Shown one piece after another: positions 3,879-44,850 of a stretch of DNA of 48,589 nt (the first letter of the stretch is position 1; every line of letters begins with the position of its first letter). The position numbers and the translations under genes were made by a program. The notes under the pieces were generated by a model that saw only the letters and a list, made by a program, of their open reading frames with translations, was not told the origin of the DNA and did not search any database. Source of the stretch: a virus; the IMG/VR virus record IMGVR_UViG_3300027987_000509; one strand, written 5' to 3'.

Positions 3879-4597
3879 AGACTCATCCCGAATATCTCTT
3901 TGGCCTGTTTCATGACTTCGGGATGAGACAAAGCTCTACGGAATTCCTCGTTGTCAGCATAGTTACGCCATCGATTGAAGACATCCATTTTGGAAGCTTT
4001 CCCTTCGAAACTGGCACCATCGAAGCTGGACCATCGACCAAATGGTGAAACTGTCTCTAGATGCTTGGTAGAGTACGGCCTCTCACATAATTCCAGTGAG
4101 ATCTTGCGGCGGTACTCTTCGTCGATAAACCAACTATTGTAGAGGATTGGGTAGATGTTTGGGCGATTTATCGAGTGAGCATGGTCTAGCCATAGCTCGA
4201 CGGCACGATTATTAGCGGCGTCGGCATGCTTGTGACAGCCCTGGAAGTTGAAACATGCCCGTAGTCTGCTAGCAAAGCAATTGAAGGGATCACGAATGAT
4301 CAGAACAACTTTGTTTTTGGCTATCTTGAGTGCATCGTCGACGAAGTGGTCTTCGTAATTTGTGATGACGCACTCACCGGTCCCTTCGTCTTCATATTTG
4401 TAGATTCCTGCTATCCCGAAATCACCGACCCCCAATTCTCTGTATTCGTCGTGGCCTTCCTCACCAAAATCGTTGTTGAATGTAGTGCTTTGGAAGTGAC
4501 CGGCGATCCATCGAATTATGGGATGATGCCCGGATCGACGCATTGCGATTACGTCAAAATAGGCCGTGGTTTCGTTCCAGTTCAGCATCTGGATCAT
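3872..4597 (-). CDS. sulfotransferase-like P-loop protein
   Basis: AMRRSGHH (PSB-like) and IIRDPFN..ASR (3'-PB-like). Confidence 0.7.
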   Translation of the reverse strand: MIQMLNWNETTAYFDVIAMRRSGHHPIIRWIAGHFQSTTFNNDFGEEGHDEYRELGVGDFGIAGIYKYEDEGTGECVITNYEDHFVDDALKIAKNKVVLIIRDPFNCFASRLRACFNFQGCHKHADAANNRAVELWLDHAHSINRPNIYPILYNSWFIDEEYRRKISLELCERPYSTKHLETVSPFGRWSSFDGASFEGKASKMDVFNRWRNYADNEEFRRALSHPEVMKQAKEIFGMSLC

Positions 4598-5387
4598 TCC
4601 ACAAAGTTGTCAATTTATTCTCGAATGACTCCCAACCGGGAGCGGCTCTCAATTGGTGGTTGAGATGGTATCCGATAGTATCGTACAAACAAGCTACTAA
4701 TTGGCCGCTTTTGATCAAGCGGATCGCGAGTTCTGTATCCTCGCCACCCCAGATTCCATCAAGTTCAATTGAGAAACCGCCAAGTCGTTTTAAGATGGTT
4801 GTTTGATAGCTGATATTGCAGGACCAGCAGTCCCAAGCTATCGGACTGTTCATGTCATCGAACTCTGCATCCCAAGAGCAAGCGGTGAATCGCAGCCACG
4901 GTCGCTTAGTTCTGATTCTGTAATCTTCTTCGATTACGTTGAGGTCGTCGTAACTGAGAGTACCGGCTTCGAATTGCTTCAAGAGCCTTGGGATAGAATC
5001 TTCCGCGATGCAACTCCTACGACCAACAACCACAATTCCGTCATCACCAAAACGAAGATGAGACTCAACCAGATTGTTTGACGGGATGATGTCAGTATCT
5101 GTACAAATCACTCGCGGCGATTTGACCTCTCCTATCGCCACATTCCTGGCTTGGCTTGGCCGATATTTTGATGTCTTCGGTGGCAGGAAGTGATACTTGA
5201 TATGCAAATCAGGAAATTTAGCTAGGACATCATCAAGACCGTCTCCGCCATCGTCCACGATGTGAATCAAGAAGTCTTTGGTGGTTTGCTGGGTGTAGCC
5301 CCATAACGCCAACGACAATCTATCCGTGTCGTTATAAGTTGGGATGATCACCTCTATCGGAAACCGGCGGTGCATCAGCACCTCCAC
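4554..5387 (-). CDS. GT2 glycosyltransferase with GT7-like C-terminal motif
   Basis: Motifs VIIPTYN, VDDG, DTD, WGGEDTE. Confidence 0.85.
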   Translation of the reverse strand: MEVLMHRRFPIEVIIPTYNDTDRLSLALWGYTQQTTKDFLIHIVDDGGDGLDDVLAKFPDLHIKYHFLPPKTSKYRPSQARNVAIGEVKSPRVICTDTDIIPSNNLVESHLRFGDDGIVVVGRRSCIAEDSIPRLLKQFEAGTLSYDDLNVIEEDYRIRTKRPWLRFTACSWDAEFDDMNSPIAWDCWSCNISYQTTILKRLGGFSIELDGIWGGEDTELAIRLIKSGQLVACLYDTIGYHLNHQLRAAPGWESFENKLTTLWNDPDAELERNHGLF

Positions 5388-6511
5388 GCTATCTGTAGGA
5401 AGTGCTCCATCGCTTCTTCCGCTGTGGAGTTGATTACTATATCACCTGTTTGTGGTGATTCGAGAGGGTATGAAGCACCAGTGTCAAGATATCCCTCTGG
5501 ATCGATAAAGATGATCTGTTTGCCCTGTGTTCTTGCTTGACTGATAACGTTGCGTCTGTCTGCGTGGCAACCAATCACCAACAAGGTTTTCGTATCTTCA
5601 CGGAATTCGATCTCCGGATAAATCGCAGTTCCGTCGAACCGTCTGCGATAATGTTCCGGTAGGCCAACTGAGGCTGGTAATCTATCGAAATTGCTTGTGA
5701 TGATCTCACCGACAATATGCCCAGAGTCATGCAGCTGCTTCAAACCGTGATAGAATGGTGTCGGCTCGGCGATGAGACACGCATGGTGAATCTTGCTAGT
5801 CTTTCTCAACGTCCCTTCAAAATCCGAAAGGAAAGACCCTATCACATCGGTTTCAGCTTCAAACAAAAACTGTTTGTGATGCTGGACTCCATAGTGTTGA
5901 TGCAGATAATTTAATGGCGGAATTCCGGCAGCTAGCGATGGACCACATCCAAGCTCCACGTGTGCTGGAAAAATCTCACTGGTGAGTTCGGAAATCGGCA
6001 AATACGTTGGGTTTCCTCGTGGTGTAATCTTCCGAATTCCGACTTTCTCGATCAGGTACCACGGTCTGTTGAGTGTTTCTGCCGATGGTGGGTTGTGATA
6101 GATCATCAACTCGAAGCAATGGTATCCGTTGCCGAATTCGAATGATCGGGTGTCGCAGTTGAGATCGCCCAAGACATGGGAATGCCCGTTGCTCTTCCAT
6201 CCACCTTCTTTCATCGAATCTGAGACGAGCTGTCGGTACTTCTCGGTTTCGTCCCCACAATTTCTGATGTGGAAGAACAAATATGGTTCTACCACGCAGA
6301 AGCAATTGTCGATCAATCCATACCGGTCTCGATGGTGAATGACTCGTCTTTTTAGCGAATTCTGTCCTGACCATCCGGATAGGTCTTGGTTCAACTCTGA
6401 CTGGTGTCGCCGCCATACCGTCTCCCTAACCTCGTATCCTCTGAATCTGATATCGAAGTTTGCCCTTTCCCGTTCCGTCAGGTTCTCCTGCAGTTTGATA
6501 GGTAACCGCAT
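5375..6511 (-). CDS. protein with C-terminal SIR2/sirtuin-like domain
   Basis: GCGPSLAAGIP (GAGxS-x-x-GIP-like), IITSNFDRL (TQNID-like), LLVIG. Confidence 0.65.
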   Translation of the reverse strand: MRLPIKLQENLTERERANFDIRFRGYEVRETVWRRHQSELNQDLSGWSGQNSLKRRVIHHRDRYGLIDNCFCVVEPYLFFHIRNCGDETEKYRQLVSDSMKEGGWKSNGHSHVLGDLNCDTRSFEFGNGYHCFELMIYHNPPSAETLNRPWYLIEKVGIRKITPRGNPTYLPISELTSEIFPAHVELGCGPSLAAGIPPLNYLHQHYGVQHHKQFLFEAETDVIGSFLSDFEGTLRKTSKIHHACLIAEPTPFYHGLKQLHDSGHIVGEIITSNFDRLPASVGLPEHYRRRFDGTAIYPEIEFREDTKTLLVIGCHADRRNVISQARTQGKQIIFIDPEGYLDTGASYPLESPQTGDIVINSTAEEAMEHFLQIAWRC

Positions 6512-7323
6512 TACTTATTGGATCTCCATTCTTCGTTGGCACGCTGAGCAGAAAAACCGATATACGGGTTGATCCCTTGCTTATTAGCGAGTGCGATGAA
6601 GGCATTGAGATCTTTGGGTAGACAAGCTCCACCAAAGCCTCTTTCGCCATCGTGTCCAGGAACGTTAGTGTGATTCGCAGTGACCCGGCCGTCTCCTATC
6701 ATAGCACAACGAACATTTTCCCAATCGTCGTCGGTGAAACCGAGAGTATCGCAAATTGATCTCAATTCATTGAAGAATGCGATCTTTACGGCGAAGAATG
6801 AATTAAGGGCGAGCTTACTTATTTCTGTTTGCTCGCTCTTCATCATGCTGATTGCTATACCAGGCCACCGTTTTTTGTAGAGCGTGGCGAGAATGCGACC
6901 AGCCCATTCGCTCCGCTCTGTTACGCCGATCAAATGCCTGCTTGGATTCAAAGCATCTTCGTAGGAGCAGCGGGCAGTCAAGAATTCAGGCGAATGTACA
7001 AGCCCAGTTAGGTTATACTTTCTAGATAGTTGTTCGGTCGAGCCTGGGAGAAGCGTTGATTTTAGAACAACTACGCCATTCCATCCTTGGATTTCAGCAC
7101 AGAAGCTGTTGATGGCTGTTAGATCGTAGCCATCATCTGACGGCGGAGTCGGCAAACAGACAAAGACAAGATCACTCTGCTCCATACAATGACCAAAGTC
7201 ACAATTGCTTCTCTCTTGGACGAGATCATACATCCAGACTTTGTCGGCGTACTCGAGGTAGGATCTGGCTGTCGCTGACCCAACGACACCCATTCCGACC
7301 ACTCCAATTTTTCGTACTTCCAT
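6511..7323 (-). CDS. ugd: UDP-glucose/GDP-mannose dehydrogenase family, short form without the C-terminal domain
   Basis: GMGVVG, VCLPTP, KSTLLPG, SPEFL, catalytic GFGGACLPKD; only 270 aa. Confidence 0.85.
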   Translation of the reverse strand: MEVRKIGVVGMGVVGSATARSYLEYADKVWMYDLVQERSNCDFGHCMEQSDLVFVCLPTPPSDDGYDLTAINSFCAEIQGWNGVVVLKSTLLPGSTEQLSRKYNLTGLVHSPEFLTARCSYEDALNPSRHLIGVTERSEWAGRILATLYKKRWPGIAISMMKSEQTEISKLALNSFFAVKIAFFNELRSICDTLGFTDDDWENVRCAMIGDGRVTANHTNVPGHDGERGFGGACLPKDLNAFIALANKQGINPYIGFSAQRANEEWRSNK

Positions 7324-16528: not shown

Positions 16529-16947
16529 TATTGTGGCATCACGGCCTGCAGATTGGTGATCGTGACAGTGCCGCCTTTGATGAAGTTGATGTTGTCGAAT
16601 TCGATGTCGCCGCCGCCACCAGTTGCCGTGACGTCTCCGTCGATGACAGCCCCGTTGTCTCTGTCATAAATACGGAACCATCCACAGACACCAGTCGCAT
16701 CGACGTTGGTATCGTCAGCGATGGAGTTGGCAAATGCCTGTCCGTTGCTGAAATTCCCGAACGCCGGGTTCGAGAAATTGTTGGTCGCCAGAAGAGTACC
16801 GGTAGCAGCTACTTGCGGACTAGCCGGTTTGCTACCTGTCCGGAATTCAATGAGACCGTTCGGGTTGGTGGAGCCAACATCGATGAGATCAACGATGGCG
16901 TCACCGGCGTCGTTCCGTGCTTGTGTCGATATGTTGACTGTCATCAA
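16528..16947 (-). CDS. probable virion structural (tail-associated) protein
   Basis: G/T/D/N-rich beta protein (ATG..GWFRI.D..G..VIDGDVT..GGGGD) typical of phage tail modules. Confidence 0.6.
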   Translation of the reverse strand: MMTVNISTQARNDAGDAIVDLIDVGSTNPNGLIEFRTGSKPASPQVAATGTLLATNNFSNPAFGNFSNGQAFANSIADDTNVDATGVCGWFRIYDRDNGAVIDGDVTATGGGGDIEFDNINFIKGGTVTITNLQAVMPQ

Positions 16948-18068
16948 TGTCTCCGTTTCCGGCGTCTGGATCTATCTACTTGGGTGATTAGACTATCTTT
17001 AATTAGCGGGTCTATTCGCCGCAACCTTCTCGGCAGGAATTGTGGCCGTATCTTTTGGTGATGCTCAACGACAGCGTTCTGTGGTGCTTGCACGTCTGCA
17101 AGCGTGATTTCGACAGCTGGTTGGACGATGCTCGGTGCTCTGACTGTTCCAGACTCCTTTAGCACCGAAGTGACTCTGATAGGAGTATGGAATGTCTCGA
17201 GAACACGAGGCGGTTCCGTTGTAGATTCAATCTTCGGATGCTTGACTTTAGCATCACCAGGCGGCTGAACCACTTCTTGCTTCGTGGCAGCTGTCGCCTT
17301 CGGCGGCAATTGTCGTGGTAAGGATACGCACGGGCAAGGATCAAATGAAAATGGTTCGAATCTGTCGACAACACCCCAACCCCATAAAGCATACAGAATT
17401 CTTCTATTACTGCCAATAGCCGCCAAGATCTGACCGGCCGGATCGAACGCTTCTGGTAATATGAATTCTCCAGAACCGATCAGCTCAAAGGCTGTCAAGA
17501 ACATCGGCCCGCCAGCACCACGATATTCTTCGTATAGCAGAGCTGACGTCGTGTGGTAGACGCTGAATTCAGGCGGCTCGAACAAGAGAGCGTCTGTGGT
17601 GTGTAATTGCCTGCCAGCACTCAGTGCCGCATCTGTAGAATGTGAGATGTCAAAGACAAACGCAATTTTGGCATCTGTCGAATGCGTTAACGAAACCTCT
17701 CCCTGCAGTAATGCATCTGTACTGTGCGTTAGCGAATTTTCGGCCTGAAGCAAGGCATCCGTGGTGTGAGTTCTTGGTAGAACAAACAAAGCGTCCGTCG
17801 TATGAGTTCTGCTAATCTCGGCCTGGAGTAAAGCATCTGTGGTGTGTGTGAGACTGTTCTCGGCCAGTAGCAGGGCGTCTGTGGTATGACTGAGGCTTGA
17901 TCCACTGCTAAGCGACGCGTCTGTAGTATGCGTAAGTGACGACGTTCCTTGATTGAGGGCGTCGGTTGTATGGGTCCGCGATTCTTCCGCCAACAGTAGG
18001 GCGTCGGTCGTCTGAATCCGTGAATTTGCACCCGCCAGGGCGTCGGTTGTGTGGACAAGACTCGGCAT
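16944..18068 (-). CDS. 14-aa HTTDALL repeat protein (short paralog)
   Basis: About 13 HTTDA repeats followed by a domain shared with the upstream gene. Confidence 0.8.
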   Translation of the reverse strand: MPSLVHTTDALAGANSRIQTTDALLLAEESRTHTTDALNQGTSSLTHTTDASLSSGSSLSHTTDALLLAENSLTHTTDALLQAEISRTHTTDALFVLPRTHTTDALLQAENSLTHSTDALLQGEVSLTHSTDAKIAFVFDISHSTDAALSAGRQLHTTDALLFEPPEFSVYHTTSALLYEEYRGAGGPMFLTAFELIGSGEFILPEAFDPAGQILAAIGSNRRILYALWGWGVVDRFEPFSFDPCPCVSLPRQLPPKATAATKQEVVQPPGDAKVKHPKIESTTEPPRVLETFHTPIRVTSVLKESGTVRAPSIVQPAVEITLADVQAPQNAVVEHHQKIRPQFLPRRLRRIDPLIKDSLITQVDRSRRRKRRH

Positions 18069-21000
18069 TATCCTCTCCTTCTCCTACGCTGACCTACGGA
18101 GAATGAGGATAACATTCGCGGTGGTTCTTGTACCGCAATCGTTGATTCGTGAGTCACGTGTGCATTTTGCGGTGGCATGATCGCTGCTTCTTCTTTTATG
18201 GCGATGCTGCTCACCAGGCTCTTGATTGTACCAGCTTTCTTGTTTGGTCTTAATTTCGCCAAGGATTTGTGGAAGTCGCTCTTTGGAATCGGCTTTGGTA
18301 TGCGTGATGTAGCCTGTCTCGGTACGACAGATCGTGGCCTTGGTGCCTCTACGGGTTCAATCTCGACCTGTAGCGGTTCCGATGCCGCCAGTTGCTTGAT
18401 GGTGCCAGCTGGCTTACTACTCTTTGTCAGTAATAGAGAGACATCGAAGCTTGTCAGGAATCGAAGAAGCGGTGGCTCTTGCTCTTCTGTTGATTGAACC
18501 GGTGCGATATAGCTTGGGTCTAGCGACCTTGCCAAGCGTCTCGCCTCGGCTTTCTGAGCCGCTGGTGCGTCAGATTCCTGGAATTTCTGTAAGTCAAATG
18601 CTGTTGGCCCTGATCCTGTCTCGATTGAGACCAGTGTTGGACGATCAGCATTGAGCGGATCGAGTTCGCCGAGAAGAAGCTTACCAGCCACAACTATGCA
18701 GCGGAACGGCTTAAGCGGTCTGTCGCATGCAAGGACACCGTCTTTGCCCCAACGATAAATCTGTTCGAGGCGTCGTCTGTTCTGGTAGAAAATCTCGACT
18801 TCGATCTCTTTTGGATCGAATGGCTCTGGCAGCGTGAACGTTCCTTCGCCGACAATCTCGAACTTGGGAAATTCGAATCCATCGTTGGTCGGGCGGAAGA
18901 ACGGAACAAAGACACCAAATCCGCTCAGCTCGAACTTGTTGAAATTCAGGACGCCAAGGCCAGGGCCTTCGAAAAGTCCAGAACCGCTGAGCGAGAACTC
19001 AGAGAAGACGAGCGATCCAGAACCGGTGAAGACTGCCTGTAGTAAAGCGTCTGTCGAGTGGACCAACGTGTTGACTTGAGCCAACTTCGCGTCGGTGGTG
19101 TGTGTCCTAGTATTGTCGACGGCCTGCAACAAAGCGTCTGTTGTATGCAGTCGCGATGTTTCGCCAAGCAGCAAAGCGTCGGTAGTGTGTGATCTGCTTT
19201 CTTCGGCTTGGAGTAAGCTGTCCGTTGTGTGAGTCAGCTGCTGATCTGCAAGCTGTAACAAAGCATCGGTGGTGTGAGTTCTTTCCACATCGACCGATTG
19301 CAGTAATGCGTTGGTGAAGTGGAACCTTTGTCCGGCTCCCTCCATCAGTGCGTCAGTAGAATGTGTGAGTTGACTTGTCGCCTGGAGGAGAGCGTCTGTG
19401 GTGTGACTTAGGCTTCCTTCGGAGAACAATAAAGCATCGGTAGTCTGAGTCAATGACCCTTCGCTGAATAATAGCGAATCAGTCGTATGCGTCAGACTGA
19501 CGACGGCCTGCAAAAGAGCATCGGTGGTGTGGATCGCGGATCGTTCGCCGAATAGCAAAGCGTCCGTTGTATGGGTTCTTGACTCTTCGGCCTGAAGAAG
19601 AGCGTCGGTCGTGTGAGTCGTTGATCCTTCGCTCGACAAAAATGCGTCTGTCGTGTGTGTCCGAGATTCCTCAGACAGCAATAGAGCATCTGTCGTGTGT
19701 TCTTCAGATCCTTCACTGAAGAGAAAGGCGTCAGTCGTGTGTGTCCGAGATTCTGCCGTGAACAAGAGAGCGTCAGTGGTGTGAACCCTCTCGTTGTTGA
19801 CTGCCTGTAGTAAGGCGTCAGTCGTGTGGACAATGGCTCCTTGGCTCGATAGGAAGGCATCGGTGGTGTGGGTCCGACTTTCTTCGGCGAAGAGCAACGC
19901 GTCGGTGGTGTGGGTCCGACTTTCTTCGGCGAAGAGCAACGCGTCGGTGGTGTGGGTCCGACTCTCCTCGGCCAATAAGAGAGCATCAGTTGTGTGGGTT
20001 CGGCTCTCCTCCGCCAGCAACAGGGCGTCAGTGGTGTGAGTCAGCGACCTTTCGCTGAATAATAACGCATCGGTGGTGTGGGTCCGACTCTCCTCGGCCA
20101 GCAACAGAGCGTCTGTTGTGTGAGTCGTGGTGCCAGCTCCTGAGAGAAGAGCGTCGGTGGTGTGGGTCCGACTCTCTTCGGCAAACAGGAGAGCATCAGT
20201 GGTATGCGTGAGCGATCGCTCACTGAAGAGCAGAGCATCGGTGGTGTGAGTCCGCGATCCCTCACTTAGCAGCAAGGCATCGGTGGTATGCGTTCTCGCT
20301 CCGGCCCCTTCTAGCAACGTATCAGTAGTGTGGGTCAGACTATTTTCAGCCTGAAGCAAGGCATCGGTTGAGTGTGTCAACGACCCTTCACTGAATAGAA
20401 GGGCGTCTGTGGTGTGGGTCAGGCTATTTTCAGAAAATAAGAGAGCGTCGGTGGTATGAACCCGGCTCTCTTCCGCCAGTAGGAGGGCGTCTGTTGTGTG
20501 GGTCAGGCTATTTTCAGCCTGCAACAAAGCATCGGTCGTATGGGTCCGAGACTGTTCGCTCAGGAGTAAAGCGTCTGTTGTGTGAGTCCGAGATTCTTCC
20601 GCCAGTAGGAGGGCGTCAGTGGTGTGTGTCCTCGATTCTTCAGCAAGCAAAAGAGCGTCGGTGGTGTGGGTTCGGCTCTCTTCCGCCAACAACAGAGCGT
20701 CAGTTGTGTGAGTTCGAGATTCTTCACTGAAGAGCAACGCATCGGTGGTGTGCGTTCTTGATCCTTCACTGAAGAGTAATGCGTCAGTGGTGTGCGTCCT
20801 TGACACATTGACGGCTTGAAGCAAAGCATCTGTCGTATGCGTTAATGCTCCCTGACTGGTCAGGAACGCGTCGGTTGTGTGCGTTCTCGACTCTTCCGAC
20901 AACAGAAGGGCGTCGGTGGTATGGGATAAAGTACGCTCGAAGAATAATGACGCATCTGTGGTGTGCGTGAGCGATCGCTCTGTGAATAACAGAGCATCCG

Positions 21001-21322
21001 TAGTATGGGATAGGGTGCCTTCGGAGAGCAGTAACGCGTCAGTTGTGTGCGTTCTCGACTCTTCGCTGAGGAGTAGAGCGTCGGTGGTGTGAGTCCGACT
21101 CACCTCAGCCTGAAGCAAGGCATCGGTAGTGTGGGTCCTGGACTGCTCGCTCAGGAGTAGGGCGTCGGTAGTGTGAGTCCTGGACTGCTCTGTCGCTTGG
21201 CTTTGGAGACTTGAGTCTGTGGTGTGGGTAAGCGACTGCTCAGCGAGGTTCAGACCGTCCGTAGTGTGGGTACGGGAATTCGCACCGGCTAGAGCATCAG
21301 TTGTATGGTCAAGACTTGGCAT
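18068..21322 (-). CDS. 14-aa HTTDALL repeat protein (long paralog), probable fibre or virion surface protein
   Basis: Roughly 54 tandem xxSRTHTTDALLxx repeats (estimated from length); synonymous sites diverged. Confidence 0.85.
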   Translation of the reverse strand: MPSLDHTTDALAGANSRTHTTDGLNLAEQSLTHTTDSSLQSQATEQSRTHTTDALLLSEQSRTHTTDALLQAEVSRTHTTDALLLSEESRTHTTDALLLSEGTLSHTTDALLFTERSLTHTTDASLFFERTLSHTTDALLLSEESRTHTTDAFLTSQGALTHTTDALLQAVNVSRTHTTDALLFSEGSRTHTTDALLFSEESRTHTTDALLLAEESRTHTTDALLLAEESRTHTTDALLLAEESRTHTTDALLLSEQSRTHTTDALLQAENSLTHTTDALLLAEESRVHTTDALLFSENSLTHTTDALLFSEGSLTHSTDALLQAENSLTHTTDTLLEGAGARTHTTDALLLSEGSRTHTTDALLFSERSLTHTTDALLFAEESRTHTTDALLSGAGTTTHTTDALLLAEESRTHTTDALLFSERSLTHTTDALLLAEESRTHTTDALLLAEESRTHTTDALLFAEESRTHTTDALLFAEESRTHTTDAFLSSQGAIVHTTDALLQAVNNERVHTTDALLFTAESRTHTTDAFLFSEGSEEHTTDALLLSEESRTHTTDAFLSSEGSTTHTTDALLQAEESRTHTTDALLFGERSAIHTTDALLQAVVSLTHTTDSLLFSEGSLTQTTDALLFSEGSLSHTTDALLQATSQLTHSTDALMEGAGQRFHFTNALLQSVDVERTHTTDALLQLADQQLTHTTDSLLQAEESRSHTTDALLLGETSRLHTTDALLQAVDNTRTHTTDAKLAQVNTLVHSTDALLQAVFTGSGSLVFSEFSLSGSGLFEGPGLGVLNFNKFELSGFGVFVPFFRPTNDGFEFPKFEIVGEGTFTLPEPFDPKEIEVEIFYQNRRRLEQIYRWGKDGVLACDRPLKPFRCIVVAGKLLLGELDPLNADRPTLVSIETGSGPTAFDLQKFQESDAPAAQKAEARRLARSLDPSYIAPVQSTEEQEPPLLRFLTSFDVSLLLTKSSKPAGTIKQLAASEPLQVEIEPVEAPRPRSVVPRQATSRIPKPIPKSDFHKSLAKLRPNKKAGTIKSLVSSIAIKEEAAIMPPQNAHVTHESTIAVQEPPRMLSSFSVGQRRRRRG

Positions 21323-22194: not shown

Positions 22195-22571
22195 TGCATT
22201 TCTCAGAATTTCTGAATCGCGTCATCGATGACGGGATCGCAGCCGCTCGTGAGGACTATGCTAAACCGGCCCAAAAGCGTAAGCTTGAAGGCTCGATCGC
22301 CGGTTTTGAGGCATGTCGGAACGTCCGCCCTTTGCATGCTCATCAGGATCTCACGGAACTTTTGGATGCGGCGAGAACTTCTACTCATGCCGCTTCGCTC
22401 GGTGACGAACGTGAGGACTATTGGTGGTTCAGATGCTACGAACTCGAGGTCGAGTGGATTTGCAACTGCGTTTCTGCGGTGCTTATCAACGAAGGCAAAC
22501 CTCCAATAATTACTCCTACAGCTCGTGGAGTATTAAAAGCTGCAGATATCATCGGTGTTCGTGCTTCTTAA
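22194..22571 (+). CDS. hypothetical protein
   Basis: TAATG coupling; ends immediately before the array. Confidence 0.7.
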   Translation: MHFSEFLNRVIDDGIAAAREDYAKPAQKRKLEGSIAGFEACRNVRPLHAHQDLTELLDAARTSTHAASLGDEREDYWWFRCYELEVEWICNCVSAVLINEGKPPIITPTARGVLKAADIIGVRAS

Positions 22572-22572: not shown

Positions 22573-23185
22573 GGACCTGTCCGGCACGGTTAGGTCCGGT
22601 ACGTTGCGGAGCGGCCCGTTGAGCAAATGCTTGGTAGTCCATGACTTTTCATGGAGTGTCTTGCCCCGGTGCAGCCCGGAACGGCTCGTGATCGTCGCGG
22701 AAGTGCAGTGTAAGGTGACCAATGGTTTCCAAGCGGCTCGGAGGGTAAAGCGAGTCGTGGATTGTACCGGAGCTGCCCGTCTTGAGTAGAGTCCGGCCCG
22801 GCACTGTGAGGAAGCCGATGGCTTTTTCAAGGATGGGTGAGTTTTGTCCCGGTCTCGCCCGGTAAGGTAAGAACCGTTGTGGAACGCACAGGTGGCCGAT
22901 GGCCTTTCTTGGATCGTCGCGTCAAGCGAGGGTTCGGAATGGTAGGCATAGTTTCGGCTAGCGTACGGCTCAGCCCGGAATGTCATGCTTCGGTGGCCAA
23001 TGGCTTTACAAGGATAGTCTAGGTGCTGTAATGCTGGTTCGGGATTGGTGCGTAGTGAATCGGTGGTGTATGGTAGCCAACGGCTTTTCGGGGCTAGTCC
23101 AGGCTCGGCGTAGCAGGTCCCGGCAAAGCAGGTGACCGGTTGGCGGGTCAGAGCTTGTCTGGGCAAGGGAGTCCATGACCTTCAA
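22573..23185 (+). repeat. pentamer/hairpin array segment 1 (7 units), candidate guide RNAs
   Basis: 5-nt periodic G/GG runs, each ending in a triloop hairpin (22636, 22717, 22813, 22894, 22995, 23075, 23170) plus a pyrimidine tract. Confidence 0.85.
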
Positions 23186-23197
23186 CAAGGCAGAAAG

Positions 23198-23464
23198 ATG
23201 GCAAAGCGTCAGCAGAAGTTCCAGCGGCCGAAGTTCACTGTCGACGAGTCGTTTCTCGGCGTGACGGTTGTCAAGATGAATGATGCGATGAGAGAATTGC
23301 TGTCGCAATTCATCGACGATGTCAATGATGTGGAACCAGAGATTCTGGCTCTCAGCAAGGCACTCATCGACCCCGTCAAGAGCCGTGAACTGCGAGACGA
23401 GAAGAACAGACGCAACCATCGTCGCAACAGACAAGTATTTGATGAGGAAGAAGCTGTAGCCTAA
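23198..23464 (+). CDS. small hypothetical protein embedded in the array
   Basis: 88 aa, helical and charged; pentamer periodicity stops at its start and resumes after its stop. Confidence 0.7.
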   Translation: MAKRQQKFQRPKFTVDESFLGVTVVKMNDAMRELLSQFIDDVNDVEPEILALSKALIDPVKSRELRDEKNRRNHRRNRQVFDEEEAVA

Positions 23465-23466
23465 TC

Positions 23467-25092
23467 GGCTAGGCTTTGCCATACCAATCGATACGAGCGA
23501 TGGGTGTGGAGCGGTTGGGTTCACTTTGGCAGTCTGCGGGTGCCCAGTGCACTTTCCGGGACCGGCTCGTCCAGGTTAATGTAGGGCCGGGAAAGTCTCG
23601 ATACGGAAAGTCTCTGTAGGGGTGCCCAGTGCACATCACACGGCACGTTTGGGTGCGGAATACCTCGTCTGGTAGCGGCACTGCGTGCTAAGGCCGGAGC
23701 CGGGGAGTCAATGGCTCTTTTATGGTTCGGCACGTAGGGGCACGTTTAGGATGGCCCGGTTAGCTGGGGTCCGGTACTCACCGGCGGGTTTAGGGAGCCA
23801 ATGGCTTCACCGGGCACGTACCGGAAGGTCACGCTCGGGTTGGGCTGCCACCGGCTCGTCATAGAGCGGTTAGGAAGTCCACGACTTCACAGGGACCGGA
23901 TAGGTGAGTCTTGTCCCGGTCTGGTCCGCACGGGATTGATCCGGCAATGAATAGCAGGTCATGCTACGGTAAGTTTCGGAAGCCAACGGCTTTACTGGGA
24001 GCGGTATGCTCGGGTGTTGCAGAGTGTGCAGAGAAGCGGTCTGACATGGAGATCAACGGTCTATCACAGACGTGGCATGAATCGGACAGCTCCGCCTTGG
24101 CGGCCAAGGGCCGCCACACGGCTAGATGCGGAAGTGTCGGCATTGGCAAGAGCGGGGTGCGTCCAGGTATCGTACGGGAACCAATGGTTTATTACCAGGT
24201 GCGGCCAGGAGCGGCTGTGCCCGGTAGGGCTGGGTCCGGAAAACCCCGGCATAGCAGGGTCAGGGAGTCCACGACTCACTCAATGGCTAGGGAAGGATGG
24301 TCCCGGCAGAGTTCGGTTGCGTGCGGCACAGCGTGGAAAGAGCCGGGAAGCCAACGGCTTCTTTTGAGGCAGGGCATGGTGCTGTTTGGTACGCCAGTGA
24401 TCGGCGTGGTGGTAACGGACCGGTTTGGTAGCCAATGGCTTTTATTTAGGGCCGGTACCGGAAGGTGCGGACCGGCATGCTGTAGTCCGGTGCGGTACGG
24501 TGTGGAAGTCCATGACTTCACTTGGATTGGTCCTGCTTGTTTCGGTAGTGTTCGGCGAGGAAGTGCTAGGTGTGATTTGTTGAGGCACTGCCCGGAGGCC
24601 AATGGCCGCTTTTGAGGCTTGGATGAGCACGTAGTGGCACGGCACTGTAGGCTGTGGAGTGGTTTACCTCGGTGTTGCGGGGATCGGCAGGGTTGGGGAG
24701 CCAACGGCTTCTAACGGGCAAGGTCCGCCGCGTCTCGATGCGGAGCGTATTGGACTGGTACCCAATGGGTTTTATTGGATTGGTCCGCCATGGTAGAGCT
24801 AGGCTCGGTCGGGAACGTTTGGGATTGTCTCGCACTGGACTGGCTTGCACAGGTAGGCAATGGGAGTCGACGACTCTTTCAAGGCCCGTTTCGGAGCTGC
24901 CATGCCAGTTTTGGTACGCTCGGCAGCGGTTCGGAGTCCAATGGACTTTCAAGGCGAAACCAGGCACGGTTTGGTGCGTCTTGGACCGGCTACCATCGGA
25001 GGTCAACGGCCTTTTTCGGGCAAGGCAAAACGAGTTGCTGCCAGGCACGAGTGCTGCTGGGTACGGCAAGTCTCGGGACTCCATGAGTTTCC
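23467..25092 (+). repeat. pentamer/hairpin array segment 2 (about 20 units)
   Basis: Same unit architecture; hairpins such as AGCC-AAT-GGCT, AGTC-CAC-GACT, ACCC-AAT-GGGT, ACTC-CAT-GAGT. Confidence 0.85.
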
Positions 25093-25108
25093 ACCTAGGA
25101 AATCAAAC

Positions 25109-25244
25109 GGGAGCGTAGCTCAAAATGGACAGAGCCGATTTTCGAAAATCGAGTATCGACTGCTACCGTGGGCAGGAGGTTATTTTTCCTCCTAGCAGCG
25201 GGTGTGGAAGATGCGACATGCGGGTTCGAGCCCCGTCGCTCCTA
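25109..25244 (+). ncRNA. tRNA-like RNA with a large insertion, inside the array
   Basis: Acceptor GGGAGCG/CGCTCCT-A, D arm GCTC/GAGC, T arm GCGGG-TTCGAGC-CCCGT; about 85 nt in place of the anticodon and variable arms. Confidence 0.7.
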
Positions 25245-25249
25245 CTACT

Positions 25250-26210
25250 GGTTGGTTTAGACGTGCATAACATAGGCGTGTCTGAGCCCGGCCCGTGATT
25301 GGTAGTGTATAGTCCGGTCGGGAGGGGAGGCCAATGGCCTTTATTGGTCCGGAGAGGCATAGCGTGTCACAGTTCGGCTCGAGCACGGTAATGTCGGGAG
25401 TGGTTAGGTGTCCAATGGACTTTCCTACGAGGAAATCACATGGATTGCGTAGGCTATGCAAGCCAAGAACAGAACCGGAGGGTCTGGTATTGGAAGCCTA
25501 CGGCTTTTCCTGGAATGGCTCGGATGGTCTAGAGTAGACCCAGGTGGAGCTGGGTTCGGAAATGTTGGGTTAGGGAGCCAAAGGCTTTAAGTGGATTGTC
25601 GCGTCTAGTCTAGGTGGTCTCGTCGTGGTGTGAGCGTAGCACGGTTTGTAGAGACTGGGACCGGCACGGTCAGCTTCGGACTGCAACGGGAGCCGATGGC
25701 TTCACAAGGATTGGACGGGAAAGGACAGCAATGCAGAGGTTAGGTATGCTCGGGTCCGGGAGCCCACGGCTTTATGTATGAATCGGCAGGGCTGGGCAGA
25801 TTTCGGAGCGTCGCTGCTGGCAATGCCAAGAGCTTGGGATTCCATGAATCTCAATTGGATAGTCTAGGCTCGGTGCGGTAGTGTTCGGAATAGTGCGGCA
25901 GGCAAAGGGACTCAAAGAGTCTTCCAAAGGCTAGGTTGGCTGAGGCCGATCCAGGTGGTGCAGTAGCTCGTCCAGGATTGTTCCGGCATTGCGAGGAAGC
26001 CAATGGCTTTTCGAGGCTAGTTGCCCGGAGACCAATGGTCTTTCATGGATCGGCAGGGCTGGGTAAGTTTCAGCCCGGTGCCCCTAGGATCGTCAAGGAG
26101 ACCAATGGTCACTCAAGGTTTGTCACGGATAGTCGTGGTTCGGTCATACTGGTTAGGGACCGGCGAGCCGGGGTAAAGCACGGCTAGGCTCGGGGACCAA
26201 TGGTCATTTA
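25250..26210 (+). repeat. pentamer/hairpin array segment 3 (about 12 units)
   Basis: Same architecture; the last three hairpins are identical (GACC-AAT-GGTC at 26030, 26100, 26195). Confidence 0.85.
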
Positions 26211-33015: not shown

Positions 33016-33855
33016 ATGTCTGACTCTTTCGTGCCCAAAAGCTATGCTTTCAAGTTCACGGGCACCACGGCGATGCTGATGCACGCCGACGACGTCGAAG
33101 CCGCCGACCGCCTGCAAGCCTGGCGGAAGGACCCGAGTAACAACGAACTGTCTGTCCCCGGCGACGATCGGTCGCCACCGTGGACATGGCGGACCTACCT
33201 CTACGCCGGAGAGATCGATGGCGTTCGGCAGGTCGTGATTCCGTCCTCGAACGTGATGGCCGCCCTCCGCTACGCTGGCTCCCAGATGACCTTGAAGGGC
33301 AACAAGACCTTCAAGAAGCTGTCGCAGTCCGGCATCGCCATCCTCGACGAGTTCTGTGCCCTCAAAGTCGGCCTCGGCCCCATCGAACACGCTCCCGTGA
33401 TCGACGCCGAATACGCCCGGCTGGCCGGACTCATGCCGAACGAAGGCGAGAGCTACGAAGCCCTCGCCGCCCGCCATGCCGCTGAGCTTGGCGTCGACGT
33501 CGGCAAGCCCCATCCCGGATTCGGACTGCGTCCGATCCTCGCATCGGACATCGATGCGATTCCGGAGATGATGAAGTACCGAGACCAAGTGACGCAGTGT
33601 CGCAAGCTCGGCTTCAACCTCTACGCCAAGCGTGCCCCGGTCGGCAAGTCCAAGCACGTCCGCTGCCGTCCTCGCTTCGAGGTCTGGGAAGTCACCGGGA
33701 CTCTCAAGGTCACGCAGGAAGCGATCGACGACAAGATCCTCACCACGATGCTCAACATCGCTGGCGAGCAGTCCGGCCTGGGTGACTGGCGTCCCTCAAG
33801 CCCGCTGTCTCCTGGACCTTTCGGTCAGTTCACCGTCGATCTGAAAGCCGTCTGA
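33016..33855 (+). CDS. stand-alone Cas7/RAMP-like protein, candidate effector for the pentamer array
   Basis: N-terminal strand FKFTGTTAMLMH; VIPSSNV (IPxSS-like); R.RPRF..W; C-terminal Gly-rich loop GLGDWRP...GPFGQF; AAGGAG SD; strong C-ending codon bias. Confidence 0.75.
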   Translation: MSDSFVPKSYAFKFTGTTAMLMHADDVEAADRLQAWRKDPSNNELSVPGDDRSPPWTWRTYLYAGEIDGVRQVVIPSSNVMAALRYAGSQMTLKGNKTFKKLSQSGIAILDEFCALKVGLGPIEHAPVIDAEYARLAGLMPNEGESYEALAARHAAELGVDVGKPHPGFGLRPILASDIDAIPEMMKYRDQVTQCRKLGFNLYAKRAPVGKSKHVRCRPRFEVWEVTGTLKVTQEAIDDKILTTMLNIAGEQSGLGDWRPSSPLSPGPFGQFTVDLKAV

Positions 33856-33876: not shown

Positions 33877-33911
33877 ACAAGGGCCGGGGGTCAATAGCCT
33901 CCGGCCCTTGT
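33877..33911 (+). terminator. stem-loop terminator after the RAMP-like gene
   Basis: ACAAGGGCCGGGGGT...GCCTCCGGCCCTTGT inverted repeat. Confidence 0.75.
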
Positions 33912-40124: not shown

Positions 40125-40790
40125 ATGGATATCGATGACCAAGTCAATATCGTGGACATGATCGCAGACGAGTTTGAAAAGCTCGTCAAGGGCATCTACG
40201 AAGACGTGCGTGTCTTATCCAGCCAACAAAACCCAACCGTCAGATGGCCCCTACGAGTATCATCAGACCTATCTGAGAAAGGATCGCGGGCCGATGCCTG
40301 CTCTGACGTGTGGGGAATCTCGGTGATTGCAAACGGCGACTGGTGCCACTCAAATCCAGAACCGACAAGCAACCGAATAGGCAGGTTATTGATCGATCAC
40401 GAACGCATTCGCGTCGGTCGCCTCGGCACTCAATACGCCATAGCTCTAGCGGAGCCACGTTTAGAACAAGAAGTGCTCACAGTCCTGCACGAAGACATCA
40501 CCTCATACCTTCTCGGGCAAGCCGAAGTCATGGAACGGAACGGCAATCTCTGTCGTACCAGCATCAGAACCAGAGACGTCGACGATTGCTATAAAGCCGT
40601 TGGACTCCTCGATTTACGTTATCTCGCACACATGTACAAGTCTGCGTATCTAGGGTGGGAATCAATTCCTGACCTAGTGGTGGTCGGCTCAGAGCGAGAC
40701 TACGGTGCTCCGCCAGTCGATCGCAGACCTTATCGACGCGAGCAAATCGAGCATGAAATGCATGATCCTGGCCGGTGGAAAGGGCACTAG
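40125..40790 (+). CDS. hypothetical protein
   Basis: 221-aa ORF. Confidence 0.6.
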   Translation: MDIDDQVNIVDMIADEFEKLVKGIYEDVRVLSSQQNPTVRWPLRVSSDLSEKGSRADACSDVWGISVIANGDWCHSNPEPTSNRIGRLLIDHERIRVGRLGTQYAIALAEPRLEQEVLTVLHEDITSYLLGQAEVMERNGNLCRTSIRTRDVDDCYKAVGLLDLRYLAHMYKSAYLGWESIPDLVVVGSERDYGAPPVDRRPYRREQIEHEMHDPGRWKGH

Positions 40791-41484
40791 ACTTGGCTCA
40801 TTAACGGTAGCTGTCAACAAGCACTTGCTGCCAGTCGGTCCAAAGCCGATGATCATGCACTCTTTCGAGTTGCTCTATCGGGCGGGCTTCAAAGACGTCC
40901 TGCTCGTCACTAACGCCGAGAATGTCGGCGACTTCATGAAGCTCATCTCGGGTCGAATCCATCCACTCGAGAAATTCAATCATCTCTACGTCACGCCACA
41001 GTTTGAACCAGCCGGAATCGCGGATGCTATCCGTTATGGCGAAGGATTCTGCCAAAGAGGACCTGTGCTGGCTTTGCTCGGAGACAATGTCTTCGAGCCA
41101 AAAGACATGGAAATGTTCCGGCAGGTCGTAGAGGGATTCCAGAAAAATCCAGTCGGGGCACATATCTGGACGATTCAAGTCGAGGACCCAAGCGACTACG
41201 GCGTTCTGATTCTTGATGAACAATACAAACCACACGGAATCGTAGAAAAGCCAAAGGAGTACGTTGGCAATCATGCAGTAGTCGGTGCTTACCTCTTTGA
41301 CGGCCGAGTGTGGGACATCATTCCGACGCTCGTTAAGTCCGACAGAGGAGAGTACGAAATTACTGAGATCATCTGGGAGTACTTAAAAGACGGTTCACTC
41401 ACTCACCATGAGCTGCTGGGTGAGTGGTACGACCTCGGTCGTTCTGTTGAATCGTATTACAAGGTCGCTTCTAGGGTCTCATGA
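40753..41484 (+). CDS. rmlA: glucose-1-phosphate thymidylyltransferase
   Basis: ILAGGKGTRL...NKHLLPV..KPMI, LGDN, YGV, EKP, RGEYEIT, W.DLG. Confidence 0.9.
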   Translation: MKCMILAGGKGTRLGSLTVAVNKHLLPVGPKPMIMHSFELLYRAGFKDVLLVTNAENVGDFMKLISGRIHPLEKFNHLYVTPQFEPAGIADAIRYGEGFCQRGPVLALLGDNVFEPKDMEMFRQVVEGFQKNPVGAHIWTIQVEDPSDYGVLILDEQYKPHGIVEKPKEYVGNHAVVGAYLFDGRVWDIIPTLVKSDRGEYEITEIIWEYLKDGSLTHHELLGEWYDLGRSVESYYKVASRVS

Positions 41485-42341
41485 TAGCAATACTAGGTGC
41501 CAGCGGATACATCGGACAAGCATTCGTAAGGTTTTTCGACAAGCACGGAATCGCCTATCGCTCAGTCTCACGCAGAGAGTGTGACTATTATTGTCCGAGC
41601 GAACTTGGATTCCTTCTCAGCTTCCTGAAGCCGAAATTCCTCATCAACTGTGCTGGTTATACTGGCAAGCCAAACGTAGACGCCTGCGAGGATCACAAGG
41701 CCGAATGTCTATCTGCCAACGTCTATTTGCCTTTGGCCATCAACGAGGCGTGCGAAAAGCACGGCATACCGTGGGGCCACGTCGCTTCCGGCTGCATCTA
41801 TCAAGGCAATAACGGTGGGGTTGGCTTCGCGGAGGATGACCCGCCGAATTTCAGCTTCCGGCAGAACAATTGCAGCTTTTACTCTGGCACCAAAGCTCTC
41901 GCTGAAGAGGCGATGAAAGATGCCAAGTGCTGGCAATGGCGTCTTCGAATCCCATTTGATGCCAATGTTCACAACAGGAACTACATCACCAAAGTCCTGA
42001 CGTACAAGACGCTTCTTGATGTGGAGAACAGCCTCTCGCATCTTGATCAGTTTGTAGAGTGCTGTTACTACTGCCTGGAGCATGATGTGCCGTTCGGCGT
42101 CTACAACATGACGAATGGAGGTAGTGTCACTACCCTTGACGTGGCGAATCTACTGAAGGAACGATTTCCGCACCAACAATTCCAGTTCTTCAAGGACGAA
42201 GACGAGTTCATGCGGCTGGCCGCCAAGGCACCGAGATCGAGTTGTGTCTTGGATAACTCTAAAGCTCTCTCTGCTGGTATCCCTCTAGATCACGTTACAG
42301 ACGCGTTGGCCGCCGCTATCCGAGACTACGGAGCGGCATGA
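41481..42341 (+). CDS. rmlD: RmlD-like NDP-sugar reductase/epimerase
   Basis: [32 protein letters not shown]. Confidence 0.8.
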
Positions 42342-43351
42342 TGAAAATTCTTGTAACTGGCGGGGCTGGCTTCATTGGCGGCCATTTCGCGAAGATGTAT
42401 GCCGGTAAGCACCGGATCATCAATTATGACAAATTGACCTACGCCGCGAATCCGCTTTTCATTCCGGACCCTGACACCGACGAGCATACTTTCGTCAACG
42501 GCGATATCTGCGACAAAAAGCAGCTGATGAACACATTTTGCAGGTTCATCCCAGACTGGGTCGTCAATTTCGCTGCAGAGACTCATGTTGATCGGTCGAT
42601 CGATGGTCCGATCGATTTTGTGCAGACCAATGTGCTTGGGACGTTCCAGCTGTTGGAGGTTGCCCGTTGGTACTGGGAGACGATGCTTAACGAAGTCGGT
42701 CAACGCCGTTTCCGTTTGTTGCATGTGTCGACAGACGAGGTCTATGGCTCGCTTGGCAAGACTGGGAAGTTCACCGAGAAGACGCCGTATGCCCCGAATT
42801 CTCCGTATTCAGCGTCGAAGGCAAGTGCTGATCATTTTGTTCGTGCTTACCATCAGACATATGGTCTTCCGGTCATCACAACCAATTGCTCAAACAATTA
42901 CGGCCCTCATCAGTTCCCGGAGAAGCTGATTCCGTTGATGATTTTGAACGCTCTCAACGGAAAGGAGTTACCGGTCTACGGTGACGGTAAGCAAATCCGT
43001 GATTGGTTGTTTGTAGAGGATCACTGCCGGGCAATCGAGACTATTCTCGAGAATGGCAAGCTTGGCGAGACTTACAACATTGGCGGTGATTGCGAGATGG
43101 CCAACATCTCGATTGTGAAGCTTATCCAGGAAAAGGTTGGTGGCGGAACGATCAAGTTTGTGGAGGATCGTCCTGGTCACGATCGCCGGTATGCGATCGA
43201 TTGCACCAAGCTGAAAAAAGATCTGCTGTGGGCTCCTCTTGAGACATTCGAGTCGGGTCTTGATTACACGATCGAATGGTACAAGGAGAACAAGAGGTGG
43301 GTCGAGGAATCGACGGCTTACAGGCAGCAGAGGTTGGGGCTTAGCCGGTGA
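42338..43351 (+). CDS. rmlB: dTDP-glucose 4,6-dehydratase
   Basis: [50 protein letters not shown]. Confidence 0.95.
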
Positions 43352-43675: not shown

Positions 43676-43739
43676 GGCACTGCTTGGCTCGGTGCGGCAG
43701 GGTAAGGACGAGACCGGCACGGAATGGGGGCCGATGGCC
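43676..43739 (+). repeat. solo pentamer/hairpin unit
   Basis: GGCAC TGCTT GGCTC GGTGC GGCAG GGTAA GGACG AGACC GGCAC GGAAT GGG, then GGCC-GAT-GGCC. Confidence 0.85.
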
Positions 43740-43872
43740 GATGGGAATACCCTCGTGTGCTTTTTGCTGGGCAAACGTATTTAAGGTTGTCGAAAGAACA
43801 CGAACCTTGATTTAACGGGTTGTGTCCTTTCGGTAAGAAGCTCTTTGACAACACAATCGGTGGACTCAGGTC

Positions 43873-43999
43873 TGGAGGACTTGGTAGAAGTTCAGAGTAC
43901 GGGTTCGATTCCCGTTATCGCTACCAACTGCGATATGTGCCGAATGGTAAGGCACCACACTTTTCAATGTGGCATTACACTTTTGCCGACTTTCCTCCA
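43873..43999 (+). ncRNA. handle RNA A carrying a circularly permuted tRNA
   Basis: TGGAGGA/TCCTCCA and GGTAGAAGT/ACTTTTGCC stems enclose T arm, TATCGCT-ACCA, TGCGATA, D arm and anticodon arm, in that order. Confidence 0.75.
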
Positions 44000-44021
44000 A
44001 ACCTGATTGCACCGATTCAAT

Positions 44022-44117
44022 CGCCTGTTCGTCCAGTGGTAGGACAGAAGGGGAACGCTGCAGACTTCGGTCGCAGATATGACCCGCCAGACCTCGGTTC
44101 GATTCCGAGATGGGCGA
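44022..44117 (+). ncRNA. tRNA-like RNA with non-canonical anticodon region
   Basis: Acceptor CGCCTGT/ATGGGCG-A, D arm GTCC/GGAC, T arm CTCGG-TTCGATT-CCGAG; the middle is a UUCG-capped hairpin. Confidence 0.7.
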
Positions 44118-44119
44118 CT

Positions 44120-44240
44120 TGGAGGACTCTGGTAGCAGTTTAGAGATTTAGCTCAATTGGCAGAGCATCGGTCTATGGAACCGAGAGTTGCGGGTTCGAT
44201 TCCCGTGATCTTAACCAACACTGTTGCTGACTTTCCTCCA
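44120..44240 (+). ncRNA. handle RNA B enclosing a tRNA
   Basis: TGGAGGA/TCCTCCA and GGTAGCAGT/ACTGTTGCT stems. Confidence 0.75.
44142..44217 (+). tRNA. tRNA with ATG anticodon (His-like, atypical), inside handle B
   Basis: Cloverleaf; TCGGT-CTATGGA-ACCGA; A1:A72 mismatch; A73; encoded CCA. Confidence 0.7.
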
Positions 44241-44275
44241 TTTTTTTCAACAACGCAAAGGACGCTACAGCTACA

Positions 44276-44476: not shown

Positions 44477-44481
44477 TACAT

Positions 44482-44594: not shown

Positions 44595-44601
44595 ATATAA
44601 T

Positions 44602-44688: not shown

Positions 44689-44691
44689 CTC

Positions 44692-44752: not shown

Positions 44753-44850
44753 ACCTTTTTTCAGGTGAGGCATGGTGCTGTTAAAAAAACAGACCTACGT
44801 GCCAAAGACCCTGTACTGAAATGCTGAAATGCTGAGTTACGAGGATAACG

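Follow-up and report, generated by a model that had tools for sequence, protein, structure and literature searches.

Results

Guide Array and vipr Gene in a Viral Contig

We analyzed a stretch of 48,589 nt of DNA (the window, to which all positions refer), which is the final 48.6 kb of the 146,091-base virus record IMGVR_UViG_3300027987_000509. An array of 39 predicted VIPR guide RNA (vrRNA) units was located at 22573..26205 on the plus strand on the basis of periodicity, unit parsing and tail covariation. The vipr gene (33016..33855, plus strand), which codes for a protein of 279 aa with a RAMP fold, lies 6.8 kb downstream of the array and has no vap gene beside it. We regard it as virtually certain that the locus belongs to VIPR. 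The guides that could be decoded are aimed mainly at bacterial defense genes.

Each unit consists of a run of 2–19 steps (median 12), in which a G-rich pair is followed by H (A, C or T) and a dinucleotide NN, and is closed by GG-N, a hairpin with a triloop and a linker of pyrimidines. An earlier note, made from the letters of this DNA alone, had counted about 39 such units. Parsing gave the same number: 37 units carry a regular tail with GG-N, a 4-bp stem and a C-NAN-G triloop (with one mismatch in the tail at 23167), and in two further units, at 23503 and 23558, the tail deviates in that its closing pair is broken. These two units (23503..23633, plus strand) have a 15-nt repeat in common, and the second is partly decayed with an internal duplication. 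The spacing from tail to tail is 32–115 nt, except for gaps of 251 and 371 nt. The periodicity of G reported in the note was confirmed by autocorrelation, which reached 0.184, 0.269, 0.183 and 0.197 at lags of 5, 10, 15 and 20 nt in the region 22573-26210 (z = 11.4, 15.9, 10.8 and 11.7 versus 500 shuffles) and was ≤0.064 in the two flanking regions.

Pentamer statistics were taken over 38 parsed units (37 array units and an orphan unit described below), comprising 434 steps of five nt, 14 of six nt and 4 of four nt. G was present at position 1 in 79% and at position 2 in 69% of the steps, with GG in 222/434 (51%) and at least one G at positions 1-2 in 420/434. While the G or GG that the note had read at these positions stood, its code had to be corrected at position 3, which is constrained to H (non-G in 430/434 steps). 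An extra G accounted for 12 of the 14 six-nt steps. GGY was found in only 157/434 steps (36%), so that the triplet is indeed more degenerate than GGY, as the note had stated. Across 40 tails, 92.5% of the stem cells pair and 43 cells were changed on both sides, which no shuffle matched (0/500), the structure model being drawn from the same 40 sequences that were used for the count; the hairpins thus covary as claimed. The longest exact repeat in the array is 15 nt, and the Rfam search gave no match inside the array.

Vipr Protein and Homologous Loci

The protein encoded by 33016-33855 matched the Vipr protein of SUSP1 (PDB 36pp_D) with an E value of 4.5e-6, and this was the sole match in a phmmer search of solved structures. 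Residues R138, D177, W178 and R179 of SUSP1 Vipr align with R218, D257, W258 and R259, that is, with the guide-binding Arg and the DWR of the G-loop. These four residues were invariant across 41 homologs and H23 was nearly so; the segment H17-H23 scores just 0.6 bits. The AlphaFold2 model (pLDDT 88) had its best Foldseek matches in Cas7-family chains, and none of the Cas families in Pfam or NCBIfam was matched by the protein. Together with the lack of identical repeats and of Rfam matches this agrees with the view of the earlier note that the array is not CRISPR. Its assignment of the array to VIPR (10.64898/2026.04.26.720920) was right, and the open reading frame (ORF) 33016 codes for a Vipr.

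We collected 621 Vipr homologs, with 65–87% identity for close relatives. An insertion of ~60 aa (window 33364-33540, Vipr residues ~117-175) is common to the 11 closest homologs and was confidently modeled; it is a candidate for the cause of relaxed triplet reading or for a stand-in for Vap. Same-strand pentamer runs were present within ~1.5 kb of the gene in 79 of 80 homolog loci, which are not all independent, and such runs thus co-occur with homologs of 33016, as the reading of the note requires. The tail type of the array also adjoins vipr in related loci. Scanning for nothing but the tail pattern yielded three contigs, all from one phage and all with a neighboring vipr gene, and a second tail-pattern scan returned no match. 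When loci of close Vipr relatives were searched for, a single-protein viral scan gave 0/21 candidates, an alignment-based scan gave homologs of ≤42% identity only, and a metagenome scan gave two distant fragments among 254 candidates.

No pentamer run adjoins 33016-33855 itself, as the array ends 6.8 kb upstream and the orphan unit lies 9.8 kb downstream. Among the genome ORFs of more than 150 aa, vipr has the highest share of C-ending codons (0.50), a bias that would fit high expression. Directly after vipr a strong terminator-like hairpin is present (33879-33909). In a related 388-kb phage from IMG/VR (G205; loci L022 and L513), nine canonical guides with identical tails lie beside vipr, and a small detached guide cluster lies 209 kb from vipr; one guide is present in both places. 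The related loci L028, L034, L042 and L031 contain head-to-tail guide runs without hairpins, which are split by a GGAWC-type mark and are probably the staggered arrays of 10.64898/2026.04.26.720920.

Reading Rule and Strand Polarity of the Guides

In the published VIPR code, NN pairs meet the target with one base skipped, which is the wobble base of the codon. The NN composition of the units correlated with reverse-complemented codon positions 1-2 (r 0.63), as opposed to r -0.35 for the sense reading. The reverse-complemented codon usage gave the better fit for 30 of 38 guides (p 5e-4), compared to 174 of 410 units from other phages. At the peptide level 11 of 12 matches were antisense, and targets were not spread over both strands. 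Most guides are thus complementary to coding strands, and this polarity is one-sided.

A skip of one nt outscored skips of 0, 2 and 3 for u2, u3, u4, u5, u26, u27 and u32 (units are numbered along the array), although this comparison and the local maxima are circular for u2, u4 and u32, whose loci had been retrieved by means of the respective guide patterns. The gapped NN code postulated in the earlier note was supported by in-frame matches under the 1-nt skip, as opposed to skips of 0, 2 and 3. The idea that pentamer position 3 pairs with the wobble base was rejected, as wobble-constrained NN pairs show A, C and T at this position (overall chi-square p 0.03).

The guessed target families were recorded before the target searches began. 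An NN match of ≥80%, the published threshold, was reached by 6 of the 39 units, all in frame: u2 (23/24), u3 (21/26), u4 (23/24), u5 (26/32), u27 (20/24) and u32 (19/20). We consider six guides as well supported and about five as weaker. In a set of loci selected by family name only, z≥3 was obtained for 9/37 guides in antisense and for 1/37 in sense direction, while 150 guides of foreign phages gave three antisense and two sense passes in the same set (Fisher p 1e-6). One of the nine antisense passes was u11, in an unrelated frame. Over all cellular loci, 11/37 guides passed in antisense and 1/37 in sense direction at the peptide level, the sense pass being u11 in an efflux gene. In 1.95 Mb of defense-enriched loci the top match was in frame and in the predicted family for u3, u5, u8, u16, u27 and u11, with u5, u16 and u27 exceeding all 20 shuffles. 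Only 1/38 guides was flagged in 0.4 Mb of random planctomycete DNA. Within the phage's own 146 kb, which is an incomplete genome, no skip-1 match exceeded the shuffles, and the same was true for all 37 guides (0/37) in 104 kb of the related 388-kb phage. In 1.3 Mb of loci from Vipr phages, u3 alone matched at the nucleotide level.

Predicted Targets of Individual Guides

All guides named here are on the plus strand. Guide u4 (22831..22904) spells the Walker A motif of BREX BrxC. Its full 12-codon exact pattern gave no match in GTDB. A second pattern required 10 of the 12 codons to be exact and left codons 2-3 free, a choice guided by the BrxC motif. In GTDB, all 120 of the 120 matches listed for this pattern read W[IV][STA]GFFGSGKSH (37 at 23/24 and 83 at 22/24), and ~1900 matches were estimated versus ~1 expected by chance (596 Gb x 2 / 4^20). 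The freed codons returned V/I and S/T/A, and the guide itself has V and T. All six matched proteins that were scanned were BrxC.

Guide u2 (22653..22727) is complementary to the Walker A codons of SNF2 helicase genes of the Hma/DISARM type. At ≤3 mismatches 60 matches were found in 52 of 201 Planctomycetota genomes, five of them at 23/24, and the reversed control gave none. The PADLOC scan of six matched helicases had HmaA as best match for five and DrmD for one; HmaB- or HmaC-like genes lie beside three of the six. A weak lead comes from u26 (25250..25339), for which the match (23/30, peptide z 6.7, a single locus, L408:462-1238) lies in a 255-aa gene. This gene closely precedes a helicase region of the Hma type and is ~9 kb from a u2-matched SNF2 helicase gene. 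No family was found for this 255-aa gene, and an Atlas search was empty.

For u5 (22911..23005) the match was to HsdM of type I restriction-modification, with 26/32 in Planctomycetota HsdM and peptide z 7.9. The catalytic YADD region of retron-type reverse transcriptases was matched by u27 (25346..25420), with 20/24 in three reverse transcriptases labeled as retron by PADLOC and peptide z 7.1–8.9. Guide u3 (22744..22823) reads as a Walker A motif, either that of the phosphorothioation protein DndD/PbeC or that of an SMC-type ATPase related to it; the match in DndD was 21/26 with a nucleotide p of 0.10 and peptide z 4.1–5.3, and a phage AAA_23 protein was also matched (20/26). An N-terminal motif of an SbcD/Mre11-like nuclease is matched by u32 (25785..25849), for which six matches at ≤2 mismatches were found in 5/151 genomes (best 19/20) versus one control match. 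The matched proteins that were scanned were all Mre11/SbcD-like (3/3), with scores below the curated cut-offs.

The remaining matches were weaker. Both u8 (23642..23716) and u16 (24285..24359) point to the HExxH region of IrrE/ImmA-type metalloproteases. The match of u8, to RmrA/CapP-like proteins (PADLOC RmrA), was 19/24, not above shuffles at the nucleotide level, with peptide z 4.4–4.9; that of u16, the second IrrE/CapP-type guide (PADLOC capP), was 19/24 with peptide z 5.2–6.1. The helix-turn-helix (HTH) of XRE proteins was matched by u19 (24524..24607) with 21/28 and peptide z 4.6–6.7, the best match being an HTH repressor with S24 peptidase; a match of u19 with 21/28 in random DNA was treated as chance. 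The C-terminal His...Tyr motif of tyrosine recombinases was matched by u30 (25593..25701) with 25/38 and a peptide z of 5.3 in the family set and 2.9 over all cellular loci. Some guides scored only inside small family sets, namely u10 (DGQHR, 17/24), u20 (HsdR, 20/32), u17 (reverse transcriptase, 18/24) and u11 (HerA, 21-22/34). A match of u22 to BrxA (19/34) was treated as chance. By their motifs we would take u15 to be E1/ThiF-like, u37 phosphoribosyltransferase-like, u14 helicase motif Ia and u12 HTH, all unsupported.

What the guides address are Walker A boxes and catalytic signatures, regardless of their place in the gene. Since wobble bases are skipped and catalytic motifs are targeted, a single guide would serve against an entire protein family in different host strains. 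The earlier note had not foreseen that the decodable targets are mostly bacterial defense genes that are read on one strand.

Inserted Elements and Genomic Setting

The region is not wholly non-coding, contrary to the earlier note. It contains an 88-codon ORF (23198..23464, plus strand), which had no matches in Pfam, NCBIfam or PHROG, and a tRNA-like element (25109..25245, plus strand; detected by ARAGORN in intron mode, fold z -2.6, no Rfam match), in which the acceptor, D and T arms are present and the central region is enlarged. This element could supply cut sites for RNase P/Z or could be an unrelated insertion. Several similar tRNA-like elements (43860-43925, 45985-46118 and further ones within 43800-47560), which combine features of the T-arm and acceptor with expanded or odd central regions, sit among true tRNAs and were not called by ARAGORN or Rfam. 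One unit (26016..26040, plus strand) is truncated to two steps. In the DNA run X3, which represents parts of the array and shows no substitutions there, this unit is 19 nt longer and would thus comprise about six steps; deletions seem to make guides differ from one population to another. An orphan 40th unit, beyond the 39 of the note, lies directly upstream of the tRNA cluster (43676..43739, plus strand) and consists of 10 pentamers and an array-type tail; its target was not found. A promoter scan gave five sites, one of them at 22483-22510, versus 2.7 ± 1.5 by chance, and is not evidence.

Judged from translations, portal-, terminase- and baseplate-like genes are among the ORFs of the window, which also carries a transfer-messenger RNA (tmRNA) and eight tRNAs. 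The 146-kb contig is probably a fragment of a giant phage, because many genes are homologous to pieces of the 388-kb phage, with up to 73% identity. The host is probably a planctomycete, as suggested by a PSCyt1 domain at the Pfam cut-off and by Atlas clusters (0.86), the latter being a lead only. The phage encodes a ribosome recycling factor (46270-46743), along with a small ORF that we take to be cold-shock-like (44270-44478) and the tmRNA (47710-48052). Two long ORFs of 374 and 1084 aa on the minus strand (16944-21322) are made of HTTDALL-type repeats of ~16 residues, and the 1084-aa ORF had zero Pfam matches. Clusters of genes that, from their translations, resemble those for glycosyltransferases, sulfotransferases and dTDP-sugar synthesis (58-7323 and 40705-43351) possibly serve DNA or capsid modification.

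Discussion

The system shares many features with the type II VIPR of SUSP1 (10.64898/2026.04.26.720920, 10.64898/2026.04.26.720927; PDB 36pp): a single-RRM RAMP protein with the thumb Arg and the G-loop DWR, pentamer guides of ~9–16 repeats with a structured 3' tail, a code with a 1-nt skip at the wobble base, location on a phage, and no self-targets. The differences concern size, layout and content. There are 39 + 1 guides here, whereas SUSP1 has four and none of 81 related loci has more than 14, so that the array is about three times the largest of these. The minimal VIPR locus has vrRNAs flanking vipr, whereas here the array is detached and no vap was found in the 146-kb fragment. The triplet is (GG/GY/WG)H with 36% GGY instead of strict GGY, the tail is a triloop hairpin of 4–7 bp instead of a pseudoknot, and both the ~60-aa protein insertion and the strong coding-strand polarity are unlike SUSP1. 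The pentamer variants NNNGG, YNNNG and NNNNG are allowed among VIPRs (10.64898/2026.04.26.720920), and protein 33016 with its array falls within the related VIPR pentamer consensus only, not within strict GGY. While SUSP1 targets satellites and prophages, the decodable targets here are bacterial defense genes.

Solo or orphan vrRNAs of F5 satellites and VIPR-null phages, according to 10.64898/2026.10.15.759431, also lie away from vipr, work in trans and address catalytic codons, including those of a recombinase. Our genome differs in that it carries the cognate vipr itself. The solo vrRNAs are directed at REP decoys, vipr genes and rival vrRNAs, whereas the guides here point at host immunity. 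The type III/V VIPRs of hosts, which lie in defense islands (10.64898/2026.04.26.720920), likewise tie VIPR to anti-phage defense; they are cellular, bear nucleases and target viruses, while the system described here is viral and aimed at defense genes. As in class 1 CRISPR with Cas7 and crRNA, a RAMP filament on a processed guide is suggested by the Foldseek matches to Cas7, whereas identical repeats and spacers as well as a cas operon are missing here and the pairing is gapped. Phage RNA anti-CRISPRs and protein anti-defense factors likewise counter immunity. Our system would differ from such factors in combining one protein with many guides for unrelated systems, in place of one inhibitor per system.

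As far as the accessible parts of the literature go (10.64898/2026.04.26.720920, 10.64898/2026.04.26.720927, 10.64898/2026.10.15.759431, 10.64898/2026.10.21.760802), phage VIPRs target satellites, prophages and other VIPRs, satellite guides target REP decoys, and cellular VIPRs against viruses as well as non-canonical triplets have been reported. In the same parts we found neither phage guides against host defense genes nor an array of this size, and the target tables (Data S3) could hold such cases. Literature searches turned up no further paper on VIPR. New here are the guide content and the one-strand reading; the array is larger, detached, degenerate and polarized compared to related ones.

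Read codon by codon, no fewer than six units give core motifs of genes of bacteria, and in five cases the gene is an anti-virus gene. The units therefore likely act as guide RNAs against host immunity, and the phage likely silences several immune systems. We give a probability of roughly two in three to silencing of defense genes, together with genes of mobile elements, as the working role of the array. The most serious alternative, which we consider unlikely on balance, is that the guides suppress resident prophages, satellites and integrative and conjugative elements (ICEs) that compete with the phage, and that defense genes are struck only as cargo of such elements. An integrase (u30), an XRE/S24 repressor (u19) and two IrrE/ImmA proteins (u8, u16) are together a typical control module of such elements, u3 and u30 score against phage proteins too, and a satellite recombinase is targeted by the SUSP1 VIPR (10.64898/2026.10.15.759431). 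However, the strongest matches are BrxC, HmaA/DrmD, HsdM, DndD and retron reverse transcriptase, the silencing of which would not affect the mobility of an element and would aid an incoming phage. Structural and replication genes were also not matched by any guide in the 1.3 Mb of Vipr-phage loci or the 104 kb of the giant relative.

The one-sided polarity raises the question of the nucleic acid that is recognized. It is improbable, in our estimate rather more so than the competition with resident elements, that the complex acts on mRNA instead of DNA, with guides pairing with transcripts and blocking translation or triggering decay. The antisense orientation of the peptide-level matches and of the composition scores fits such an action, and other phages are unbiased in this respect. 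SUSP1 Vipr forms guide-RNA duplexes in vitro (bioRxiv 10.64898/2026.04.26.720927). By fold, the protein comes nearest to Cas7 subunits from type VII/III complexes, which target RNA, in a library that predates Vipr structures. On the other hand, 10.64898/2026.04.26.720927 and 10.64898/2026.04.26.720920 state that single-stranded RNA gave mostly incomplete filaments with SUSP1 Vipr, that a DNA triplex appears needed for silencing, and that a reporter was silenced via either strand. The coding-strand bias could equally reflect a better roadblock for RNA polymerase or the mode of guide acquisition.

A decaying relic with eroding triplets, or an array of decoy RNAs that soak up the Vipr of a rival, is very unlikely. 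Erosion would be in line with 36% GGY versus 91% in 410 related units, with 18 slips in register, the truncation of one unit and the two tails whose closing pair is broken, and with an array detached from vipr in a 146-kb fragment in which no vap was found. Yet the degeneracy is rule-bound, as the retained G at positions 1-2 (420/434), the non-G at position 3 (430/434) and the added G in 12/14 six-nt steps demonstrate; in addition, stems covary, NN pairs still match targets at 23/24, and vipr has an intact reading frame with a strong codon bias. That the array is an ordinary low-complexity tandem repeat or terminator series with peptide motifs as chance readings can practically be dismissed: 39 guides were read in two orientations and motifs were first recognized by eye, but the whole-collection counts for u4, u2 and u32 with reversed-pattern controls, the controls with shuffles, other skip sizes and 150 foreign guides, and the linkage to Vipr homologs in 79/80 loci contradict it.

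Several observations weigh against silencing of host defense. Regarding the matches, 28 of the 39 array units are without a supported target, no guide match is perfect, and the sampled genomes do not include the true host. Our own guesses had enriched the local database, with the loci of u2, u4 and u32 fetched by pattern. Four of seven guide-pattern searches were empty, namely those for u4 at full length, u5 (0/201 Planctomycetota genomes at ≤3 mismatches), u15 (0/201) and u11 (0/201 and none in IMG/VR). In the large set u10, u11 and u20 were not above shuffles, and u11 had a sense match in an outer-membrane efflux gene (24/34, z 7.4). IrrE/ImmA, XRE and integrase genes belong to prophages and ICEs as much as to defense, and the nuclease SbcD acts in repair. 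In the related 388-kb phage only ~12 canonical units are present, and 20 guides from this and a second large phage gave no convincing defense match. Regarding the mechanism, perturbed GGY abolished silencing in SUSP1 (10.64898/2026.04.26.720920), where triplets as found here, with GGY in 36% only, would not work with the SUSP1 Vipr. SUSP1 required Vap1 in infection (10.64898/2026.10.15.759431), and the 146-kb fragment had no vap homolog (best E 0.07) with a profile of one downstream gene family, which is present in 66/81 related loci. A block of transcription would also leave defense proteins in place that are already made.

By analogy to SUSP1 VIPR, silencing of defense genes may proceed as follows. 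The array would be transcribed, cuts where hairpin and pyrimidine tract meet would release RNAs of ~70–100 nt, and Vipr would coat each RNA with one subunit per pentamer, thereby hiding the triplets; the unit-length processing and the subunit stoichiometry proposed in the earlier note are adopted here from the SUSP1 work. The NN pairs would then bind the coding strand of the target gene with the wobble base skipped, a DNA triplex would form, and the bound filament would block transcription of the target. Degenerate triplets would be tolerated by this Vipr as long as one G is kept and the third base is not G.

We consider it slightly more probable than the contrary that the system is a suppressor of immunity as a whole, in which one 279-aa protein and ~40 programmable guides, through codon positions 1-2 of catalytic motifs, address families of proteins instead of single genes and jointly shut down BREX, Hma/DISARM, type I restriction-modification, Dnd, retron and CapP/RosmerTA-type defense; the polarity is strict enough for mRNA to be a possible substrate. 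If so, the 28 undecoded guides would be a phage-selected list of further, possibly undescribed, defense genes. Phage counter-defense usually relies on one protein inhibitor per immune system, while in this phage one protein guided by RNAs seems to be equipped with a library directed at no fewer than five defense families that are unrelated. The direction would be reversed compared to the reported phage VIPRs, which act on rival elements, and to host VIPRs, which act on viruses. The strand bias makes recognition of DNA or mRNA directly testable, and the degeneracy of the triplets suggests that this Vipr is less strict about its scaffold, which is useful for the engineering of repeat-free multiplexed guides. 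The array is readable, as each guide translates into a motif of 10–17 residues, and it records what the phage found worth silencing.

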